A stretch of 64,000 bases of DNA from the NCBI GenBank assembly GCA_002773535.1, contig PFAZ01000001.1:241579-305578 (forward strand), given 5' to 3'. The position numbers and the translations under genes were made by a program. Positions 1,445-63,651 of this stretch are shown here, one piece after another. The notes beneath the pieces were generated by a model, which worked only from the letters and a program-made list of their open reading frames with translations, was not told where the DNA came from and did not search any database. Position 1 is the stretch's first letter. Each line of letters begins with the position of its first letter. The DNA comes from Candidatus Harrisonbacteria bacterium CG10_big_fil_rev_8_21_14_0_10_40_38. Lineage in GTDB: Bacteria; Patescibacteriota; Minisyncoccia; UBA6257; 1-14-0-10-40-38.

Positions 1445-1595
1445 AATGCTTCCTTTATTTCTGTTGATTGATAAAAAACCGACCCAGATACAAGCATATA
1501 AGATACTTCTTTATTTTCCAAACCCCAACCAAACGATTAAATATTCCCCAACCACCACAAGAGTTTTTGATTTTTCTATATAAAAACTAATTATT

Positions 1596-1728
1596 AAAAT
1601 AAAGTCTCTGAACGGATTGTGAAGCCGTTTTGGCATGGTTCCCGATCCCATTTGTGGGGAGGGACAAAACGGCTGAACCCTCGGAGTCTCGCGCTGGCGA
1701 GACGAGAATGAGTAAAGAGACTTTATTT
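1596..1728. ncRNA. candidate structured RNA element X. A 13-bp closing stem (aaataaagtctct / agagactttattt) encloses nested GC-rich hairpins.
   Basis: Inner helices seen directly: agccgttttg/caaaacggct, gtctcgc-gctg-gcgagac, ccca-tttg-tggg. GC is well above the local average and there is no ORF. Function unknown. Confidence 0.3.
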
Positions 1729-1744
1729 TAAACAAATCATTAAC

Positions 1745-1831: not shown

Positions 1832-1974
1832 GAATATTATTCTTTATATTTTGGAAGCTATCGGAGGCAAAATTCAACATTGGTATCTCTAAAATTACAT
1901 TTTGCCGAGATGCAGGAGTCACTCACTGCTCAAAGTGAGTGAACTCCGATTTCAAAATGTAAAGAATAATATTC
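1832..1974. repeat. structured repeat element Y, copy A. The core is about 95 nt and the closing stem about 23 bp.
   Basis: Core 1858..1950 is about 97% identical to 17458..17551. It contains two internal hairpins (ggcaaaat..attttgcc and ggagtcactcact..agtgagtgaactcc). The outer stem gaatattattctttatattttggaa / ttcaaaatgtaaagaataatattc is unrelated in sequence to the copy-B stem but pairs equally well. Confidence 0.6.
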
Positions 1975-1989
1975 AAAAACACATCCGTA

Positions 1990-2035
1990 AAAATCAAAAA
2001 CCGCAGCCTCCCTCACGAAGGCGCGGTTCTTGATA
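1990..2035. repeat. hairpin repeat unit (atcaaaaaccgc ... gcggttcttgat)
   Basis: 12-bp imperfect inverted repeat sharing the aaaaatcaaaaaccgcagcc motif with 1748..1768. Confidence 0.45.
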
Positions 2036-2048
2036 GAAAGGGAAAATT

Positions 2049-2363
2049 TTACATTCCCATATCGTCTGACGAACCAGATTCTGATGGCATCGGACGTGAT
2101 CCGCGAGTAGAACCTTCCGGCTCTTCAATCTTCAAATTCACTCTCGCATCGTTCTTTATTCCAACGATTCGCAAAAGAGAACGGATTGCTTTCGCAGTAG
2201 CGCCCTGCCTACCAACAACCTGACCCATGTCTTGAGGATTTACGTGAAGCGATAGGAGAACTCCCATCTCATCAACACGCCTCTCAATCTTAACGTCTTC
2301 CGGATGGTCAACGATAGATTTTACGAGGAACTCAAGAAATTCCTGATCAGCCACATTATTCAT
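2049..2363 (-). CDS. KH-domain RNA-binding protein (YlqC/UPF0109-like)
   Basis: 104 aa. A GxxG-type KH motif (VVGRQGATAKAIRSLL). Sits in the conserved position between rpsP and trmD. Confidence 0.7.
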   Translation of the reverse strand: MNNVADQEFLEFLVKSIVDHPEDVKIERRVDEMGVLLSLHVNPQDMGQVVGRQGATAKAIRSLLRIVGIKNDARVNLKIEEPEGSTRGSRPMPSESGSSDDMGM

Positions 2364-5120: not shown

Positions 5121-5825
5121 CTATTCTACATTTCCTGACTGCATACTATCGAGTGCTAATTTTGCCGCTTCAACCTCTGCTTCTTGCTTGGAATAACCAA
5201 CACCCTCAGCAATAAGTTTATCACCAAAGAAAACTCCTATGGTAAAAGTTTTCTGATGGTCCAAGCCGCTTTCGGCAAGAACCTTATAAGTAGGCGTTAG
5301 TTTAAATTTCTCCTGAACAATTTCCTGCAAAAGACTCTTTGTGTCTTTATACAAACCTTTCTTCATTACCTCATCCAATTTTGAAAGAATAAACTTCAAA
5401 ATAAAAGACTTAGCAGTCTGATACCCACCATCAAGATATATTGCGCCAATCAAAGATTCCAAGGTATTTGCCAATATAACTTCACGCGCTCTTCCTATGT
5501 CTTTCGACTCTCCTTTTGAAAGAAACAGGAATTGCTCCAGTGATATTTCTCTAGATATCGACGCCATCATCTGATAATTCACAAGCGCAGACCTTATTGG
5601 CGTAAGCTGACCCTCGGTATAATCAGGAAACCTAAAAAACAGCTCCTCCGTAACGATAAGCTCCACAACCGCATCACCTAAAAACTCGAGCCGCTCGTTA
5701 TGCGAAACAGGCCACTTCGGATCTTCGTTTAAATAAGACCTGTGAGTTAGTGATTCTTTTATAAGATTAGGATCCTTAAATGTGTAAGAAATAATCCGCT
5801 CTAGCTCAGAAATATTTTTTTGCAT
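5121..5825 (-). CDS. rnc: ribonuclease III
   Basis: RNase III signature ERLEFLGDAVVEL, plus a C-terminal double-stranded-RNA-binding domain (dsRBD)-like tail. Confidence 0.85.
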   Translation of the reverse strand: MQKNISELERIISYTFKDPNLIKESLTHRSYLNEDPKWPVSHNERLEFLGDAVVELIVTEELFFRFPDYTEGQLTPIRSALVNYQMMASISREISLEQFLFLSKGESKDIGRAREVILANTLESLIGAIYLDGGYQTAKSFILKFILSKLDEVMKKGLYKDTKSLLQEIVQEKFKLTPTYKVLAESGLDHQKTFTIGVFFGDKLIAEGVGYSKQEAEVEAAKLALDSMQSGNVE

Positions 5826-5907
5826 ATTAGAGTGAGCGACATGTGATATGAGACATGACTCAAAGCATATCCCCTGTCACATATAGCCCGTAAATACAGA
5901 TAAAAAT

Positions 5908-6378
5908 CTATTTATTTTTTTCAACTTTTTCTGGCGAAACCAAGTCACTTTTATTCTCGGTTTTCTCCATTTCTTTGTATACCGTTCCTAAAACCCCATT
6001 AATAAACCTTCCAGAATTTATTCCCCCATAATTCTTTGCAAGTTCTATTGCTTCATTTATAGCAACTTTCGAAGGAACTTCATTCTTGTCAGCATATAAA
6101 AGCTCAAAAAGACCCAATCTAAGAACATTTCTATCAATTATCGAAATCTGATCAAGCGGCCACTCTGGAGCGGTTTTTACTATAATCGAATCAATTGAAT
6201 CAATGTGTTCTATTACACCTTTTGCTAATTTCCATGCAAAGTCCGGTTCATCTACCCCGAGCGCAAATTCATTTAAATTTCTCTCGAGTACAGCAGCAAG
6301 ATCTACTTTCTTGTGCTGAAAATCCCATTCGTATAGGGACTGAAGGACGACCGAACGGATAAGTTGACGTGTAGCCAT
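5908..6378 (-). CDS. nusB: transcription antitermination factor NusB
   Basis: 156 aa, all-helical, NusB-like. N-terminus [17 protein letters not shown]. Confidence 0.7.
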
Positions 6379-6463
6379 ATATTTTTTAGGAACGTACTTC
6401 GGCTGACTTTACTCCGCCTCTCTTCAAACTATAACCACAGATCAAAGGCTAATCAAGTGAAAA

Positions 6464-6886
6464 TCAGGAAGTCTGCTCCGTTTTATCTTCCTCCGGCTTT
6501 GCAGTTTCTGGGTTTTCCTGCTCTACAGTCTGCATATCCTCTGTTTTTTTCTCGTCATCCGAATTCTGGGAATCCATTTCCATCTCTGCCTCCACAGACT
6601 CTTTGGTAGCATCTACAGACTCTCCAGAAACCCCCGAGGCCTCTTCAACAACCGGCGCCTGAACAGCCTCAGCTGCCCCAACATCAGTCTTTTCCATCGC
6701 TTCTGGCTTATAATGTTTAGTTCTCTCGGGTTTAGTATAAACCCCACACTGTATACAGGCCTTATGAGGCAAAACAGGCCCTTTGCACTGCAAGCAAACC
6801 AAAATCTTAGCCGGTTTTAAGGCTAAGTGTGCTCGGCGTCTGCCAACCTTCGATTTAGAATGATGTTTTACTGGAACTCCTCCCAT
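6464..6886 (-). CDS. rpmF: 50S ribosomal protein L32 with a long acidic C-terminal extension
   Basis: MGGVPVKHHSKSKVGRRRAHLALK... CLQC...C..CG matches the zinc-ribbon L32. The start is the internal Met at 6884-6886. About 80 extra acidic residues follow the L32 domain. Confidence 0.75.
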   Translation of the reverse strand: MGGVPVKHHSKSKVGRRRAHLALKPAKILVCLQCKGPVLPHKACIQCGVYTKPERTKHYKPEAMEKTDVGAAEAVQAPVVEEASGVSGESVDATKESVEAEMEMDSQNSDDEKKTEDMQTVEQENPETAKPEEDKTEQTS

Positions 6887-7009
6887 AAAAAAAGTAACGT
6901 AACAATAATCGAAATGCGCCAGTGTGTCAAATAATCCATAAAAACCAACAAAAAAATAGAAACTAAAAATAAATATCGGCAAGGCTTTTTTCCACACCCA
7001 CTAACCGAC

Positions 7010-7015
7010 TATAAT
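7010..7015 (+). promoter_or_regulatory. candidate -10 box TATAAT upstream of dnaE
   Basis: tataat at 7010-7015, 8 nt before the dnaE ATG. It would give a leaderless or near-leaderless transcript. No convincing -35. Confidence 0.25.
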
Positions 7016-7023
7016 TAGTTGTC

Positions 7024-10000
7024 ATGCCACGATTTACACACCTTCACACCCACTCACATTATTCACTTCTCGATGGACTTTCAAAAATCGAAGATCTTGT
7101 AAATCATGCAAAAGAACTTGGAATGGATTCTCTGGCTATCACCGACCATGGAAATCTTTACGGTGCAGTAGAATTTTATAAAAAAGCTAAAGCCGCGGGC
7201 ATAAAACCAATCCTCGGAGTTGAAGCCTACATCGCGCCGGGAGATCACACAGAAAAGAGTTCAAATGGAGAAAGAAAATATTATCATCTAACACTTCTGG
7301 TAGAAAACGAAACAGGTTGGAAGAATTTAATAAAACTCGTCTCCGAAGCACACCTAAACGGCTTTTACTACAAGCCGAGAATGGACAAAAAGATGCTCGC
7401 AGAAAATCATGAAGGCATAATCGCCCTTTCGGGTTGTCCTGCAGGAGAAGTTTCAAACCGACTAATGGAAGGAAAATATGATTTAGCAAAAGAAGCGGCA
7501 AAAGAATACGAAGAGATATTCGGCAAAGGAAATTTTTTTATCGAAATTGACCATCATCCAAAAATAAAAGAAATTGCGCCTTTAAGAGAAGGACGCGTTC
7601 GACTTTCAAAAGAAACTGGCATACCACTTGTCGCCACACAAGACATCCACTACACAAAAAAAGAAGATGCAGAATACCACGACATCCTCCTCGCAGTTCA
7701 AACGGGTGACAAATTAAGTGACCCCGACCGACTCTCCCTCAAAGCTGATGATTTTTCAATGCGCTCACCGGAAGAAATGGCAAGTTATTTTGAAGATGTT
7801 CCAGAGGCAATCGAAAATACCGCAAAAATTGCGGACAGATGCAATATCGAAATAGAGCTCGGCAAAACAAAACTCCCAAAATTTGAAGTACCGGATGGAA
7901 CTGATTCGATAATCTATCTCGAAAAACTACTTAACGAAAAAATTTCTGAAAGATACCCGGAAATCACACAAGAAATCAAAGACCGTCTAGAAAGAGAACT
8001 TTCCGTCATTAAACGCACGGGTTTTGCCGATTACTTCCTTATTGTTCAAGACTTTGTTAACTGGGCAAAAGAAAGAGGCATTGTCGTAGGTCCAGGAAGA
8101 GGTTCTGCTGCTGGAAGCATAATTTCATACATTTTAAAAATTACCGACCTTGACCCAATCAAATACGAACTTCTTTTTGAAAGATTCTTAAACCCCGAAC
8201 GTATTCAAATGCCTGATATAGACATCGACATAACTGATGTCAGACGCGACGAAGTTTTAGGTTACCTAAAAGAAACATATGGCGAAGACCACGTTGCAAA
8301 CATCATAACTTTTGGAACAATGGCTGCCCGCGCTGCCATAAGAGACGTAGGCCGCGCTCTCGGTATTAGTTACTCATTCTGCGATCAGATTGCAAAGCTC
8401 ATCCCTTTCAACCTAAAACTTGCGAAATCTCTCGAAACCGTAGTTGAGCTTTCCGAAATGTATAAAAAAGATGAACAAGCAAAAAAACTCATTGATTCAG
8501 CAATGCACCTCGAAGGGGTAGCGCGTCATGCTTCAGTACACGCCTGCGGCATCGTTATAACTGAAAAGCCCATAACAGAATACCTCCCACTTCAACGCTC
8601 ACCGCAAGACCAAAATGTCATAGTTACTCAGTTTGAAATGCATGCCGTAGAAGACCTGGGTCTCCTAAAAATGGATCTTCTTGGGCTTCGAAACTTAACA
8701 ATCATTGAAAATACCATTCGTCTCGTCGAAGAACTTCACGGAGAAAAAATAAATATCAGCAAAATCACACTTGAAGATCCGGAAGTTTTTAAACTTCTCC
8801 AAGCGGGAGAAACCATGGGCGTATTTCAGCTTGAGTCTGCCGGCATGCGCAGATATTTAAAAGAATTAAAGCCAACAAGCATTGAAGACATCATTGCCAT
8901 GGTCTCCTTATATAGACCGGGCCCGATGGAGCTTATTCCTGAATACATTGCCAGAAAGCACGGCCGAAAGCCCGTCACCTATCTCCATCCAAAACTTAAA
9001 GCAATCCTAGAAAACACATATGGCATCGGAGTTTATCAGGAGCAAATGATGCGCATAGCACGTGACCTTGCCGGCTATAGCCTAGCTGAAGCTGATACCC
9101 TCCGAAAAGCCATTGGTAAAAAAATAAAAAAACTCCTCGATGAGCAGGAAGAAAAACTGATCGCAGGCATGATTAAAAACGGCGTCGATGAGAAAACCGC
9201 AAAAGCAGTCTGGGAACTTTTTCCCTCATTCGCCCGCTACGGATTCAATAGGTCCCATGGAGCCTGCTACGCAATGATCGCCTATGAAACCGCATATCTA
9301 AAAGCTCATTACCCGATTGAGTTCATGACCGCGCTCCTAAATGCAGAGTCAGGAGACATAGAAAGAACCGCTATCCTCGTAACTGAAGCCAAAAGAGTAA
9401 ATATCGAAATCCTTCCACCAAACATAAATAAAAGCGGAGCCACATTTATGCCCGAAAAAGAAAATGGAAAAGACGGCATACGTTTTGGACTCTCGGCAAT
9501 AAAAAACGTCGGCGCAAATATTGTTGCCGCCATAATCGAAAACAGATCCGCAGAAGGTCCGTTCGAAAACCTAAGCGCACTACTCTCACGTGTCCAGCAC
9601 AAAGACCTAAATAAAAAATCCCTCGAAAGTCTTATCAAATGCGGCGCGCTTGATACTTTAGGCACAGAACGTAATCAGGCGCTCCAAAATATTGAAGAAC
9701 TTCTTAAATTTGCCAACCTTTATAAAAAAGAACAGAAAACCTCTCAAAACAGCCTTTTTGAATCCCTTTCATTCTCACCGCAATCACTTAAGTTAAAAGA
9801 TGTTCCACCAGCCAGCTCATCTGAACGTCTTGCGTGGGAAAAAGAGCTCCTGGGGCTTTACGTTACAGACCACCCTTTAAACCAACACAAAGAACGCATA
9901 GAACAAGTTAAAGCGTCTCCGATTAAATACCTTCTAGCAAACGGAAGCGATCGTGAGTATGCTCGCGTCGTTGGCATAGTCTCAAGACTTCAAAAAATCG

Positions 10001-17388: not shown

Positions 17389-17435
17389 AACCCCACAAAA
17401 GGCACAGCAAAAAATATCAATTACTAAAACAAAAA

Positions 17436-17573
17436 CTTCCCCGTATTACTCTATAGAGGCTATCGGAGGCAAAATGCAACATTGGTATCTCTAAAATTAC
17501 ATTTTGCCGAGATGCAGGAGTCACTCACTGCTCAAAGTGAGTGAACTCCGACTCTAGAGAGTAATATGGGGAA
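17436..17573. repeat. structured repeat element Y, copy B
   Basis: Core 17458..17551 is near-identical to 1858..1950. Its own closing stem cttccccgtattactctatagag / ctctagagagtaatatggggaag is about 23 bp with 2 mismatches. It lies directly downstream of the rplK stop, where rplA would normally be. Confidence 0.6.
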
Positions 17574-17586
17574 GAAAAACTCTTCA

Positions 17587-18012
17587 CTATTCTGTAATTT
17601 CTATTCCCATATTTTTTGCTGTGCCTGCAACAATCTTCATTGCTTGCTCAACATTTTCCGTATTCAAATCAGGTAGTTTAATTTCGGCTATAGCCTTGAG
17701 GTCAGCTTTCGTGACCTTGCCAACTTTCTTTTTATTCGCTTCCGATGAACCTTTTTCAACTGAAGCATATTTCTTAAGCAAAGCCGATGCCGGAGGAGTC
17801 TTTAAAATAAATGAAAAGCTCCTATCGTCATAAATAGTTATTTCAGCAGGAACAACGTCACCTGTCATGTCTTTTGTGGCGTCATTAAACTGCTTACAAA
17901 AATCCCCAATATTTATTCCATGAGGACCAAGAGCTGTTCCAACAGGAGGCGCGTGGTTTGCCTTTCCCGCCTCAAGCTGTAGCTTTAATACTGTTTTTAT
18001 TGGCTTTGACAT
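17587..18012 (-). CDS. rplK: 50S ribosomal protein L11
   Basis: N-terminus [35 protein letters not shown] matches L11. Confidence 0.9.
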
Positions 18013-22362: not shown

Positions 22363-22406
22363 ATTTACCTAACAGTTTTTGACGATCGTCAAAAACTATT
22401 AGGTAA
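22363..22406. promoter_or_regulatory. 22-bp inverted repeat (tttacctaacagtttttgacga / tcgtcaaaaactattaggtaaa): an intergenic hairpin or operator
   Basis: Near-perfect palindrome (1 mismatch) centred on cgatcg, between the 22432 ORF and pheS on the minus strand. Confidence 0.4.
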
Positions 22407-22431
22407 ACAAAAACCCACTCCAACCACCGAT

Positions 22432-24914: not shown

Positions 24915-25202
24915 AGGAAAAAATTGTTAAATAATGATACTCCGAAGAGCAAGTAAATATGCACGCGAAGTCAGTATACTAAAACACGCCAAAAAACAAA
25001 ACACCATCTCAATATTTCTAATATAAACAATACGTTTTCAAAAAAATACAAACTTTCTTATATGAACTAGGTTATCTATTCAAAGAAGGTCTCTGAGATC
25101 TTGTTTTCAATGTGAATGAGGGTGTTTCTTTTAAAAAGCTTTCGGAAGCGCATGAAGCTTGGTTCCCACCCGCAGGGGTGGGATTCATGCGCTGAGAACG
25201 CA

Positions 25203-25243
25203 GGCGGTTACTTGCCGCAGGAGCAAGTAAACCGCCGTTTTTT
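25203..25243 (+). terminator. rho-independent terminator
   Basis: 13-bp stem ggcggttacttgc / gcaagtaaaccgcc followed by gtttttt. Confidence 0.6.
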
Positions 25244-25266
25244 AAAAGAAATATCCGAATGATTGT

Positions 25267-25336
25267 TGCGGGTGCAGGAATCGAACCTGCCCCTGGTGGT
25301 TATGAGCCACCCATGCACACCAGTACACCAACCCGC
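25267..25336 (-). tRNA. tRNA with anticodon CAU. A possible C1:A72 mismatch suggests an initiator type. No encoded CCA.
   Basis: Reverse complement: anticodon stem GGTGG/CCACC with loop CTCATAA. T-arm GCAGG-TTCGATT-CCTGC. D-stem TGTA/TGCA. 3' end ACA. Short D-loop. The exact ends are uncertain. Confidence 0.55.
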
Positions 25337-25379
25337 GATATATATTCTGTTTTACAAAAAACAGTATATACTTTGTAAC

Positions 25380-26732: not shown

Positions 26733-26807
26733 GCGGTGGTAGCATAGCTGGCCTAATGCGCTGCCCTGTCACGGCAGAGATCGCGGGTTCAAATCCCGTC
26801 CACCGCG
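26733..26807 (+). tRNA. tRNA-Asp (GUC)
   Basis: Perfect acceptor stem GCGGTGG/CCACCGC. Anticodon loop CTGTCAC. Discriminator G73. T-loop TTCAAAT. Confidence 0.9.
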
Positions 26808-26969
26808 CAAAATACAAAGAGACACTCAAATTGTCTCTTTGTTTTTACAACAACGGGATTTGAACAAAGGGTGGGTCGGAGGGGACGCAACCGGGTCCCC
26901 TCCGTATAGGAAGTTATTTGAAACCGAGGGTTTCGAAAACGAAGATCTGATATAGATCGAGTTGTGAAA

Positions 26970-26991
26970 TATCCCGTCCACCGCGCAAAAT
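26970..26991 (+). repeat. 22-bp direct repeat of the tRNA-Asp 3' end (atcccgtccaccgcgcaaaata). Putative att-like scar.
   Basis: Identical to 26792..26813. An inverted copy of the T-loop segment (acgggatttgaac) also occurs at 26853..26865. Confidence 0.55.
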
Positions 26992-27182
26992 AAAAAACAC
27001 CAGATGGTATTTTTTATTTTGCCCTGATTTATCCTGAATAAAATTGAAGGAGTCACATCGAAGGGCAACAATCATGTCCTTACAGCTTCTTATGCCCCGC
27101 TACGTCAGAGCGGGGCAACCAATTCACGTGATATAATAAAAACCGCATCACATATCCCCACATTCAACATTTTACATTTCGC

Positions 27183-30895: not shown

Positions 30896-32953
<2,058 letters not shown>

Positions 32954-48546: not shown

Positions 48547-48684
48547 AAGCCACATCAGATCATTTAGAATTTTGGTATTTAATTAGTAATTAGAGTAATT
48601 AGAGCAATTAGAAATTAGAAATTTGTCTTAAGTCTTAAGTCTTTAGTTTTAAGTCTTAAGTATTCCACATTCTTCATTCTTCAG

Positions 48685-61164: not shown

Positions 61165-61500
61165 CTAGCCGAAAACTTTTAGGTCTTTTAGTAAATTGAC
61201 TACTGCAACTAAAACACCTATGCCCCCTATAATCGCAGCGACCCAAGTTGCATTGCGAATAGACCTCGTTAGCTTTTCAGAAGATTGAGATGATTTGTTT
61301 AGTTCATCAGTAAGGTGTTCTATCGCTTGGTTTGGGTTTCCAGCAACATGCTTCGTGTGATGAAACCAAACCATCTTCCATAAAAAAGTATCCTTCTTGT
61401 CTTGCTCAGACATGGATGGCCATTTCTCTCGAAGCTCTTTTATTTCTTGGTCGTCTCCAAACATTTTATTTGTTGAGATGGAATGTACCATCTTCTGCAC
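61165..61500 (-). CDS. hypothetical protein with a C-terminal TM anchor
   Basis: 111 aa. Overlaps the end of the putative endonuclease gene. Confidence 0.35.
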   Translation of the reverse strand: MQKMVHSISTNKMFGDDQEIKELREKWPSMSEQDKKDTFLWKMVWFHHTKHVAGNPNQAIEHLTDELNKSSQSSEKLTRSIRNATWVAAIIGGIGVLVAVVNLLKDLKVFG

Positions 61501-62734
61501 TAAACGAACCTGTTGCTTCTGCCATCCATCGTAACCAAGACATCATAGAACCAGCACGCCTACCTATTGTAGTTCCAGTCAGATTTGAACTTCTTGCTAT
61601 AACTTTCTCAACGTCTGATTGTGCTAGCACGCCTTTCTCTTTGAGAATGTCGAGAGAGTTTTTTACTAAATTGAAATCGGCAAGAAGCCCAGCGAAGAAC
61701 AGGTTGCGTTTCTCTGCGGGAAGCTGCACCAACTCTTTACCTACATCGGTAAGATGATACTTTCCGTCCTTCGGGAGAACCAATCCTAATGCTTCTGCTG
61801 CCTCTCTATAATAGCTGCTTTGGCGCTCGTCAAACTCGAAGTATGCGGCCACATCACGATAGTTGTCTGTTCCCTCGCTCACTTTGAAAACCAGTTCTAT
61901 CACCTTGCTCACATCATTGGCCTGCGGTATCAGGTCTTTGTAAGCGACAATACCCTTCGGTTTAATGTCTTCAATTACAATTTCATGCTCACTCGCAATT
62001 CTTACTGATTTCATCTCTCGCAAACTGATAGAGTTGTAGTTTGCGGCGTCGGGAATCTCGTAAATCCAGAAGTTATAGGTCTTTGTCGCTGGCTCGTATG
62101 TGAAGAACACAGGAACGATTGTTTTGTCGGGAGAAATAACTTTGAAATGGTTGTAAGGATAGAACAGTTGCCGAATGATGAAATCTTCTGGTGTATCCAT
62201 TTTCGCTTCAATCAATACGATTGAATCCTCACCCTCCAAGCCAGAATCAACTTCAAGCTGTACAGAGGATACTTCGAGCAGCGTCTTGTTCACCGAAAAT
62301 CTAAAATCTCTGCTGTACTCTCTCCCTCGTATGGATTGATAGAGTGGCTGCTTGCCCAAAACATTTTCAAGTGCACCAGAATTGAAACTGTAATCAAGGT
62401 ACTGCATCTCACTTGAACCTCTGCCCGCAGTTGTAAGTGGAAACTTGATACGCGAGACATGGTTCGCGGTAGCACCTGTCCCTTCCTCCAAGCGGTGAAA
62501 ACCATCGCCGCGGACGATTGCATACTTGCCATTCTTTACGGGTAGTAAGAAGTACCCGTGCTTTTTGAATATGGGCGGCAAGTCAGCAGAGCTATCCATC
62601 TTCGCCATGATTCGCGGTTCAGCGTGAGTTATTGCCTTGATTTCGTCCGCAGTGATGAAATGCAAATCTTCACCAACATCAAACTTCTTTGCGTCGAAAA
62701 TCTGCTCCCAAAGATTGAATGTTTTATTACTCAT
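61466..62734 (-). CDS. putative type II restriction endonuclease (PD-(D/E)xK) cognate to the adjacent methyltransferase
   Basis: EGEDSIVLIEAKMD fits a D...ExK catalytic motif. ATGA start/stop overlap with the upstream Dam-family MTase gene. Confidence 0.45.
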   Translation of the reverse strand: MSNKTFNLWEQIFDAKKFDVGEDLHFITADEIKAITHAEPRIMAKMDSSADLPPIFKKHGYFLLPVKNGKYAIVRGDGFHRLEEGTGATANHVSRIKFPLTTAGRGSSEMQYLDYSFNSGALENVLGKQPLYQSIRGREYSRDFRFSVNKTLLEVSSVQLEVDSGLEGEDSIVLIEAKMDTPEDFIIRQLFYPYNHFKVISPDKTIVPVFFTYEPATKTYNFWIYEIPDAANYNSISLREMKSVRIASEHEIVIEDIKPKGIVAYKDLIPQANDVSKVIELVFKVSEGTDNYRDVAAYFEFDERQSSYYREAAEALGLVLPKDGKYHLTDVGKELVQLPAEKRNLFFAGLLADFNLVKNSLDILKEKGVLAQSDVEKVIARSSNLTGTTIGRRAGSMMSWLRWMAEATGSFSAEDGTFHLNK

Positions 62735-63651
62735 ATCTTATAGTTGGTGATTACATATTCTTTTACCTTTCCGCGTCCTTCGGCCTTACAGTTGACGGCA
62801 CGGTTTGCAAGCACGGTGTGCTTGTTGAAACCACGATAGAGCTTACCGATGAAGTCGGTGTAGGAATTGCTCATCATAACGAAACATCCGCGCCTATCCA
62901 GCTCGGCAAAGATGTCTCGGAGCTTCACCTGTTCTTCTTCAAGGAAATCCTTTTCGTGATAGTTTGTGAACTTGGCTGTTCCATTCAGGGGATAGTAGGG
63001 CGGATCAAAGTATACAAAATCACCCCGCCTTGACTCTGCAACTGCCTTCTCGAAAGAAAGAGCGTTTAATGACACACCTTTGAGCGTGTTCGATACAGCA
63101 AGAAGATTTGACTCATCGAGAATTGCTGGATTCTTATACTTGCCAAAAGGAACATTGAAGCCGCCGCTTGAACTCTCGCGGTAGAGGCCATTGTAGCCCG
63201 TCTTATTAAGAAAGATGAGATATGCTGTCTTGTTCAAATCTCCCTCACTCAAATCGTTATACTTACTCCGTATTTCATAGTAGAGAGCACTTCGCCCTTC
63301 CTCTGATTGTCTATCATACTTGTCCTGCAATCGTCGCAATAGATTTACGAGGTCATCTGGTTTCTTCTGAACATGTTTGTAAGCAGTGATGAGAGTTGTG
63401 TTGATGTCGTTTAGGAACGCTTCCTTTGGCTTCACATCAAAGAAGACCGCCCCTCCTCCCAAGAATGGTTCGAAATACCTCTTGAAAGTACGCGGATAGA
63501 AGTCGCGAAGTTGTGGTAAAAGCTGCGACTTACCTCCTACCCATTTTAGAAACGGTTTTACCCCGTTCGGACGAGTAATTGTTTTTTTTGGAGTAGTCAT
63601 AGTTATTGAATATGTCCGCGCAGTTTGTATTGGTGCAAGTGTCTTTGTCAT
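62731..63651 (-). CDS. Dam-family N6-adenine DNA methyltransferase
   Basis: FLKWVGGKSQLL (motif X/I) and DPPY (motif IV) in alpha-group order. Confidence 0.8.
   Translation of the reverse strand: MTKTLAPIQTARTYSITMTTPKKTITRPNGVKPFLKWVGGKSQLLPQLRDFYPRTFKRYFEPFLGGGAVFFDVKPKEAFLNDINTTLITAYKHVQKKPDDLVNLLRRLQDKYDRQSEEGRSALYYEIRSKYNDLSEGDLNKTAYLIFLNKTGYNGLYRESSSGGFNVPFGKYKNPAILDESNLLAVSNTLKGVSLNALSFEKAVAESRRGDFVYFDPPYYPLNGTAKFTNYHEKDFLEEEQVKLRDIFAELDRRGCFVMMSNSYTDFIGKLYRGFNKHTVLANRAVNCKAEGRGKVKEYVITNYKI

Follow-up and report, generated by a model that had tools for sequence, protein, structure and literature searches.

The stretch of DNA analysed here, called the window below, comprises 64,000 nucleotides (nt) of contig PFAZ01000001.1 of Candidatus Harrisonbacteria bacterium CG10_big_fil_rev_8_21_14_0_10_40_38. 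It carries two copies of a structured element, C1 and C2, both on the + strand and both downstream of minus-strand genes, as a preliminary description of the sequence had stated: C1 follows a KH-domain gene of the KhpA/B type, and C2 follows rplK, which encodes ribosomal protein L11 (table 1). C2 converges on rplK, its stem being 12 nt away from the stop codon. C1 is located 75 nt from the KH stop, with the KH gene's own intrinsic terminator in between. Together with a further element, N, C1 forms a tandem pair within an rpsP-KH-trmD cluster, at the usual place of rimM. The only terminators reported by a terminator scan are separate ones, of the KH gene and of a WG gene. At non-CPR loci L1 is present after rplK; its gene, rplA, was not found there in the window or at approximately 55 Parcubacteria loci (L007-L061, L066, L083), an absence that presumably fits an L1-lacking subgroup of the Parcubacteria.

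A 20-nt direct repeat (1749-1768 and 1989-2008), which the preliminary description does not mention, brackets C1 with a period of 240 nt and corresponds to the first 20 nt of the KH terminator. The duplication of this terminator extends further, 1745-1822 matching 1985-2035 in direct orientation around C1, and in the upstream copy 33 nt of the loop have been replaced and one arm lacks 5 nt. The repeat could have arisen when a unit of terminator and element was duplicated in tandem.

Table 1. Elements and neighbouring genes in window coordinates; P0 to P3 are helices and R2 is the covariance model described in the text.
Feature	Position	Strand	Evidence or remark
C1, whole element	1832..1974	+	sequence; fold -60.3 kcal/mol, z -11.2; R2 56.1 bits, E 2e-13
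C1, parts	P1 5' arm 1832-1856; core 1857-1949; P1 3' arm 1950-1974	+	
C1, core parts	P2 domain 1857-1913, with GGA/GA internal loop; P3 1915-1947, with bulged A	+	
C2, whole element	17436..17574	+	fold; R2 58.6 bits, E 4e-14
C2, parts	P1 5' arm 17436-17458; core 17459-17551; P1 3' arm 17552-17574	+	
C2, outer helix P0, 5' arm	17400..17417	+	18/18 complementary to 17609-17626
C2, outer helix P0, 3' arm	17609..17626	+	inside rplK coding sequence (codons ...GTAKNM...), antisense
Element N	1594..1731	+	divergent member, ~100 nt upstream of C1; R2 15.9 bits, E 0.036 (marginal)
Element E4	25120..25256	+	canonical member between two minus-strand tRNA genes; R2 71.3 bits, E 1e-17
rplK (L11)	17587..18012	-	gene on which C2 converges (context)
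KH-domain gene (KhpA/B-type)	2049..2363	-	upstream neighbour of C1 and element N (context)
KH gene intrinsic terminator	1989..2035 (about)	-	context, outside the element

The cores of C1 and C2 are both 93 nt long and agree at 92 positions (98.9%), the sole difference being T1874 in C1 and G17476 in C2. Two near-identical cores had indeed been described; their bounds are corrected here from 1858-1950 and 17458-17551, and their identity from a figure of about 97%. The two inner hairpins reported for each core are both present, with the qualification that the one given as ggcaaaatg..cattttgcc is the copy-2 version, copy 1 having T for G, and that the second contains a bulged A missing from the earlier account. 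Each core is enclosed by a closing stem (P1), of 25 bp in C1 (two G.U pairs, no mismatch) and of 23 bp in C2 (one G.U pair, one mismatch), where the arms are cttccccgtattactctatagag and ctctagagagtaatatggggaag. The sequences of the two stems are unrelated, in agreement with the initial reading of closing stems of about 23 bp that differ in sequence, and the identity between the copies ends exactly at the P1/core boundary on both sides. In C2 the stalk is extended by a perfect 18-bp outer helix (P0) that had not been noticed previously; outer pairing in C1 is weaker (13/15). Compared with shuffled sequences, the fold z-scores of the two copies are -11.2 and -11.0 for the + strand, the opposite strand giving about -8.7, and a 58-nt pattern of the core has 0.00 occurrences expected by chance.

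Two contigs of the same strain from other samples end inside the 93-nt core (L005, at 7923, and L006, at 6151), which is what a repeat would lead one to expect; such a repeat explains fragmentation of assemblies of metagenome-assembled genomes (MAGs). Exact and gapped patterns of the core had no match in the genome, metagenome or viral contig collections, and blastn searches with the core against 80 rplK loci had none either. The C-type sequence is confined so far to this species, to whose L11 the next-best L11 is 80% identical. A role of the P1 arms as guides was rejected, since neither the window nor 190 loci contain further matches to them.

A scan for long stems at the 80 rplK loci, all from GTDB genomes, revealed several unknown elements directly after rplK on the opposite strand. 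These elements and the window core have a junction in common, (A)UCGGAG-helix-CGAGA(U), after which comes a second hairpin. A search pattern made of this junction and the base of P3, derived from the relatives and not from the window, retrieved 105 metagenome stretches, about 95 of them unique and nearly all with the full architecture. The family is spread across groundwater metagenomes and Parcubacteria genomes, with about 95 members. A covariance model built from C1 and C2 alone (R1) gave only chance-level matches.

All members share a long stem of free sequence, P1, that closes a three-way junction. The arms of P1 have a median length of 25 nt, reaching 49 nt, and its inner part is GGAAC/GUUCC, followed by A/G-U. 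P2 consists of a basal helix (P2a, 3 bp, ranging from 3 to 5 bp), an invariant G(G/C)A/GA internal loop and a hypervariable helix of 9-10 bp (P2b); beyond P2b are a 7-nt bulge, GCUUGGU, usually a variable apical hairpin, the returning strand P2b', GA and P2a'. After a linker, (A/C)GA, comes P3, a helix of 12 bp with the loop CGCUGGA and a bulged A that is invariant, and then, through a G, P1'. Overall, roughly 25 unpaired nucleotides are invariant in the family.

Covariation was evaluated on a MAFFT alignment of 32 members from outside the window. Pairing was found in 90.1% of the cells, as compared with 68.8% after shuffling (0/500) and 38-55% with the partners slid. Double changes occur in 28 of the 40 pairs (278 cells), and P1, P2a, P2b and P3 all covary strongly across the family. 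The six paralogues of the genome under study, aligned by fitting to the model R2, differ at almost every helix position; even so, 95.7% of their cells pair, with double changes in 36 of the 40 pairs. A search for further copies in this and related CPR genomes and a test of covariation had been proposed at the outset, flanks of identical sequence or a lack of covariation being the outcomes that would speak against the idea; the result favours a structured RNA. About 95 homologues with covarying helices, and the recognition of both window copies by R2, support the original idea of a functional structured RNA with a closing helix free in sequence. The two-copy pattern that had been offered as the argument for it is not valid evidence, since cores that are 99% identical inside wholly different stems of 23-25 bp indicate replacement of helix or core in one event, not gradual compensation. 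Elsewhere in the family there is also module-wise turnover: L090, L094 and L118 have P1, P2b and P3 in common and different apical hairpins, and in L143 two copies separated by 7 kb resemble each other from exactly one end of the element to the other, with P1 included, and not at all beyond these limits.

The model R2 was built from the 32-member alignment, which contains no sequence of the window. With filters off, C1, C2 and E4 all match it over model positions 1-122 on the + strand, and N also matches at full length on the + strand, with the scores given in table 1; with default filters E4 alone passes. C1 and C2 have the P2 internal loop in the form AUC-GGA-GGCAAAAU...AUUUUGCC-GA-GAU, the G(G/C)A and GA columns being invariant in 32/32 family members. 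Their P3, AGUGAGUG-A-ACUCC, has the bulged A on the 3' strand 4-5 bp above the base; this A (A107) is invariant in the family. The long P1 of free sequence just after the 3' end of a convergent gene is present in both copies, and C1 keeps the family part of the inner P1 (UUGGAA/UUUCAA), which C2 does not. Two other features agree with the family in part. The C-type bulge is CAACAUUGGU, in which UUGGU is kept and GC lost, with no clear apical hairpin, and the family loop of P3, YGC(U/A)GGA, is replaced by GCUCAA, in which GCU is kept. As the GGA of the P3 loop has been lost, the C type is, on sequence grounds, a divergent subtype of the family.

Regarding the other copies, which are absent from the preliminary description, a window scan for long stems enclosing 50-220 nt found C1, C2, the outer helix and N, and E4 was found by a descriptor search. 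N has a 16-bp P1, a GC-rich three-way junction, a GA/GA loop, the bulge GCAUGGU with an apical hairpin, and the P3 loop CGCUGG. E4 has the bulge GCUUGGU and the P3 loop CGCAGGA, its P3 is followed by T6, which is part of the closing stem, and 10 nt separate its 3' end from that of the tRNA gene at 25266-25337. Two more copies, both with the P3 loop CGCUGGA and with R2 scores of 75 and 71 bits, are located just beyond the window; one follows rplL and one a murC-like gene. The genome thus has at least six copies in about 82 kb, and all six are antisense, just after a gene end.

The strand on which the element presumably works was assigned from wobble pairs, in a ratio of 3:1, and from folding energies. 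Among the paired columns there are 46 G.U as against 15 A.C cells (26 and 2, respectively, in the first nine members), and in 73 of 80 members folding is more stable for the motif strand, with a median advantage of -6.3 kcal/mol. The motif strand is usually C-rich, the GC skew of the window being about -0.2. As mutation bias on a C-rich strand would favour A.C, we take the excess of G.U as a sign of selection for folding of the motif strand. We infer that the functional RNA derives from this strand, which in the window is the + strand and runs antisense to rplK, KH, rplL, murC and the tRNA.

Analysis of the surroundings shows a preference for gene ends. In 48 of 84 metagenome members a convergent ORF has its stop codon no more than 300 nt from the 3' end of P1, the median distance being 10 nt, and six metagenome members overlap the convergent coding sequence by at least 9 nt. 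The flanking genes are oriented -- in 22 cases, +- in 13, ++ in five and -+ in four. Members are found right after rplK in four loci from GTDB genomes (L016, L013, L038 and L017) and after KH genes in two loci (L090 and L106), although presence at orthologous sites is patchy, at about 6/56 rplK loci. No recurrent partner protein family was found beside the elements, whose neighbours are assorted housekeeping genes. T-rich tails follow P1 in just 3/76 members on the motif strand and 9/76 on the opposite strand, so that there is no terminator signature, and no consistent promoter was found upstream of P1. No family members were found in viral contigs.

The metagenome contig ena:ERZ27293400:k141_377596 (173 kb), of which the window forms part, also carries a gene for RNase III. 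The scan of the rplK loci showed, in addition, two tRNA genes and one 5S rRNA gene enclosed by near-perfect stems of 13-31 bp formed by their flanks (L040 4711-4860, L043 3352-3463 and L083 329-501), which suggests stalk-based processing of stable RNAs in related Parcubacteria.

Comparison with Rfam 15, whose families include hammerhead, twister, twister-sister, pistol, hatchet, HDV-like, Y RNA, SRP, 6S and the r-protein leaders, did not give the elements a name. In the window only three tRNAs reach the gathering score, and at E<=10 the best hits on C1, N, E4 and the rplK-locus element L016a have 8-20 bits, against thresholds of 35-245; the Rfam/Infernal check envisaged for the copies therefore returned no family match and nothing near a threshold. 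Full-text literature searches, motif strings included, found no description of the family. Because there is no match in Rfam 15 and no trace in the searchable literature, this is a previously uncatalogued RNA family of the Parcubacteria (CPR).

Several known elements were compared with the sequence and set aside. An intrinsic terminator was rejected because the "loop" of C1 and C2 is 93 nt and a U-run is absent. Elements of the MITE, IS200-IS605 PATE or REP kind do not fit, as the P1 ends are unrelated between C1, C2 and the family; no target duplication flanks C2 and no transposase is encoded among 156 neighbouring ORFs. A retron ncRNA (msr-msd) was dismissed since there is no reverse transcriptase (RT), the neighbours being rplK, KH, tRNA, rplL and murC. 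For the hammerhead, the core strands CUGANGA and GAAA are absent, the junction is A/G-U(-C), (A/C)GA and G, and an NUH-like triplet alone is present. On inspection of the sequence a kink-turn was excluded, the loop having 3 versus 2 nt (GGA/GA), or 2 versus 2 in N, and the C-stem register being unpaired. Group II D5/D6, integron attC sites and IS200/605 ends, checked on the sequence, and likewise a T-box-like UGGN bulge, CsrA GGA sites and small ORFs in the core, either did not fit or were not conserved between the copies. A single-strand-DNA element on the lagging-strand template was discarded since the favoured, C-rich strand is the leading-strand template. The junction of the C type, GGAGGC...GCCGAGA, resembles what we take to be the Methanococcus L1 mRNA site, and C2 occupies the usual position of rplA after rplK. 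A mimic of the site bound by ribosomal protein L1, on archaeal L1 mRNA or the 23S L1 stalk, was nevertheless rejected: the likeness is specific to the C type, other P2b sequences differ, the elements are antisense and multicopy, and 55 loci have no rplA by rplK.

The family shares features with systems already described. As in the orphan bacterial RNA motifs raiA, HEARO, Bacillaceae-1 and TwoAYGGAY, covariation is combined with invariant loop nucleotides and with multiple copies in some genomes, and the likeness to TwoAYGGAY and Bacillaceae-1 extends to two conserved motifs borne by hairpins and to some copies near rRNA or tRNA genes. Unlike these motifs, to whose models there is no match, the present elements have a closing stem of 25-49 bp with free sequence and a post-gene, mostly antisense position. 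REP/BIME and Correia-type repeats are likewise high-copy extragenic palindromic units at gene 3' ends that can fold on both strands, and Correia hairpins are RNase III substrates. In REP and Correia copies, however, the sequence is conserved, including the inverted ends, whereas here the ends and most helices are free and maintained by compensation, short unpaired motifs do not vary between genera, and no RAYT or transposase is nearby. Precursors of rRNA, tRNA and 5S rRNA also have a structured core inside a long helix formed by the flanks, as in the tRNA and 5S examples of the relatives, and paralogues with invariant loops and variable helices recall a tRNA gene family; in contrast to such precursors, the elements match no rRNA or tRNA model and are antisense to their neighbours. 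Intrinsic terminators occupy the same place directly after stop codons and have a strong hairpin, but a stem of 23-49 bp around a three-way junction of 93-120 nt, without a U-run in the family and on the wrong strand for the upstream gene, sets the elements apart.

Combining these results, we give a probability of roughly 55% to the reading in which C1 and C2 represent one member type of this family, encode an RNA of the motif strand that is processed at a stalk, and owe their cores to gene conversion between old loci. The RNA would be transcribed from the motif strand, and the long perfect P1, together with P0 in C2, would form a double-stranded processing stalk, by analogy probably for RNase III. 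Cleavage would release a core of about 95-120 nt, whose approximately 25 invariant unpaired nucleotides may offer a protein or ligand a binding surface located at gene 3' ends or close to them. Identical cores inside unrelated stems would then be the product of a recent gene conversion, or core-copying, event that involved two old loci of the family. On the sequence evidence gene conversion between C1 and C2 is the most likely event, because other genomes have members after rplK and KH and because C1 keeps the inner P1 and C2 does not; the same identity boundary between P1 and core would also result if a cassette had been inserted into a stem. A small RNA (sRNA) cut from the P1 stalk is our best guess for the product, and the sRNA identity of the element, one of those first suggested, is plausible. 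Genes for stable RNAs are not usually antisense and head-on to their neighbours, as these elements are. The broader proposal, that Parcubacteria genomes hold dozens of copies each (about one per 14 kb here) of an sRNA that is transcribed against the ends of housekeeping genes or operons and released from stalks, is tentative and more doubtful.

The elements might alternatively be selfish or semi-domesticated repeats of the REP or MITE kind, non-autonomous, multiplying as whole hairpin units and settling after gene ends, with the fold as the recognition target of a mobilising enzyme (acting on ssDNA or RNA) and not as a host function. We regard this as unlikely. Its high copy number (six in about 82 kb) is what such a repeat would show, but the paralogues, diverged at nearly every helix position with pairing kept, look old and individually maintained and give no sign of a recent burst. 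The 99% identity of C1 and C2 at two loci, the L143 copies with their exact limits, the patchy occupancy of orthologous rplK sites and the breaks of metagenome contigs within the core also speak for mobility, as do the extragenic sites directly after stops with their orientation bias; however, the terminal inverted repeats in P1 are not conserved, unlike the MITE ends bound by transposases, no target-site duplication was seen, no transposase, RAYT or reverse transcriptase is associated, and viral contigs have none. Moreover, known single-strand transposons use the exposed lagging-strand template, whereas the favoured strand is the leading-strand template. A related suggestion of the preliminary description, a miniature element of 93 nt inserted into the loops of two pre-existing terminator hairpins, with the stems as the old terminators, is not supported and appears extremely improbable. 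It would account for an identity between C1 and C2 that starts and stops at the centre of each palindrome, and for the TTTTTGTTTT that follows the C2 stem in the sense direction of rplK. Nevertheless, P1 is an integral, covarying part of every member: all of the approximately 95 have it, with a conserved inner part compensated within subfamilies. The scarcity of T-runs in the family, the separate and intact KH terminator, the members at the same rplK and KH sites in other genomes, and the terminators of 8-12 bp, not AT-rich stems of 23 bp, after rplK in relatives without the element all argue against such an insertion.

The working molecule could also be the sense transcript of the upstream gene, in which a 3'-UTR or operon-end structure would end, process or stabilise the mRNA, perhaps by blocking exonucleases or by offering a site to RNase III; this seems to us quite improbable. 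The place, at a median of 10 nt after the stop and at operon ends (rplK, rplL, murC, KH, a tRNA), is like that of a terminator, and in co-directional intergenic regions the element is antisense in 22/27 cases, so that the sense RNA usually carries the complement; about 20-30% of the copies are, however, in the other orientation. The opposite strand also folds well (mean -67 kcal/mol), but both wobble (46 versus 15) and energy (73/80) favour the motif strand against the local mutation bias, and the tandem G.A and the purine-rich invariant loops become pyrimidine mismatches in the complement. T-runs after P1 in the sense direction occur at C2 and C1, although they are not family-wide and a canonical terminator already lies between the KH gene and C1, and about 25 invariant unpaired bases would be superfluous for a plain hairpin. 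A small self-cleaving ribozyme of a new class, a special case of an RNA-level reading, is a very improbable explanation. The compact three-way junction with its many invariant junction, bulge and loop nucleotides, the invariant bulged A, the multiple copies with variable helices, as in the hammerhead and twister families, and a J1/2 of A/G-U-C, like the hammerhead NUH triplet, are consistent with it; no known ribozyme model matches, even at E<=10, the hammerhead strands CUGANGA and GAAA are absent, and the window copies C1 and C2 have lost the L3 consensus.

Other features were observed in and near the window. A 26-nt direct repeat (26793-26818 and 26971-26996, with 25 of 26 positions identical) begins inside the tRNA gene at 26733-26807, at its 3' end, recurs 178 nt downstream and looks like a remnant attachment-site duplication. 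An AT-rich repeat, TTAAGT(T/C)TTWAGTTTTTAGTTTTAAGTCT (family D1), occurs about 10 times in the window (for instance at 32426-32459, 48623-48656 and 31300-31333), and a near-perfect palindrome of 44 nt (22364-22407; 22+22 nt, no spacer, 95% complementary) was identified. About 61400-63651 and, past the end of the window, positions 5630-9705 of locus L192 probably make up an integrated mobile island that contains a D12-class DNA methyltransferase, DUF6996/6997/7226 proteins, a large serine recombinase, a DUF5659 protein and small ORFs. An element of the family lies at the far border of this island, after the murC-like gene.

Although the CPR account for much of bacterial diversity, the non-coding RNAs of these bacteria have hardly been explored. 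The combination of covariation, invariant unpaired nucleotides and a high-copy, mostly antisense position after genes is absent from catalogued RNA families, and the model R2 can be used to annotate the family in thousands of MAGs. If the broader proposal is true, this would be a new lineage-wide RNA system acting on gene 3' ends, perhaps a ligand- or protein-responsive antisense module that sets the fate of mRNA 3' ends or termination, or a new class of ribozyme or ribonucleoprotein (RNP). As an RNA-level system, the family would represent an undescribed handling of gene 3' ends, or a new RNP or ribozyme, in minimal genomes.
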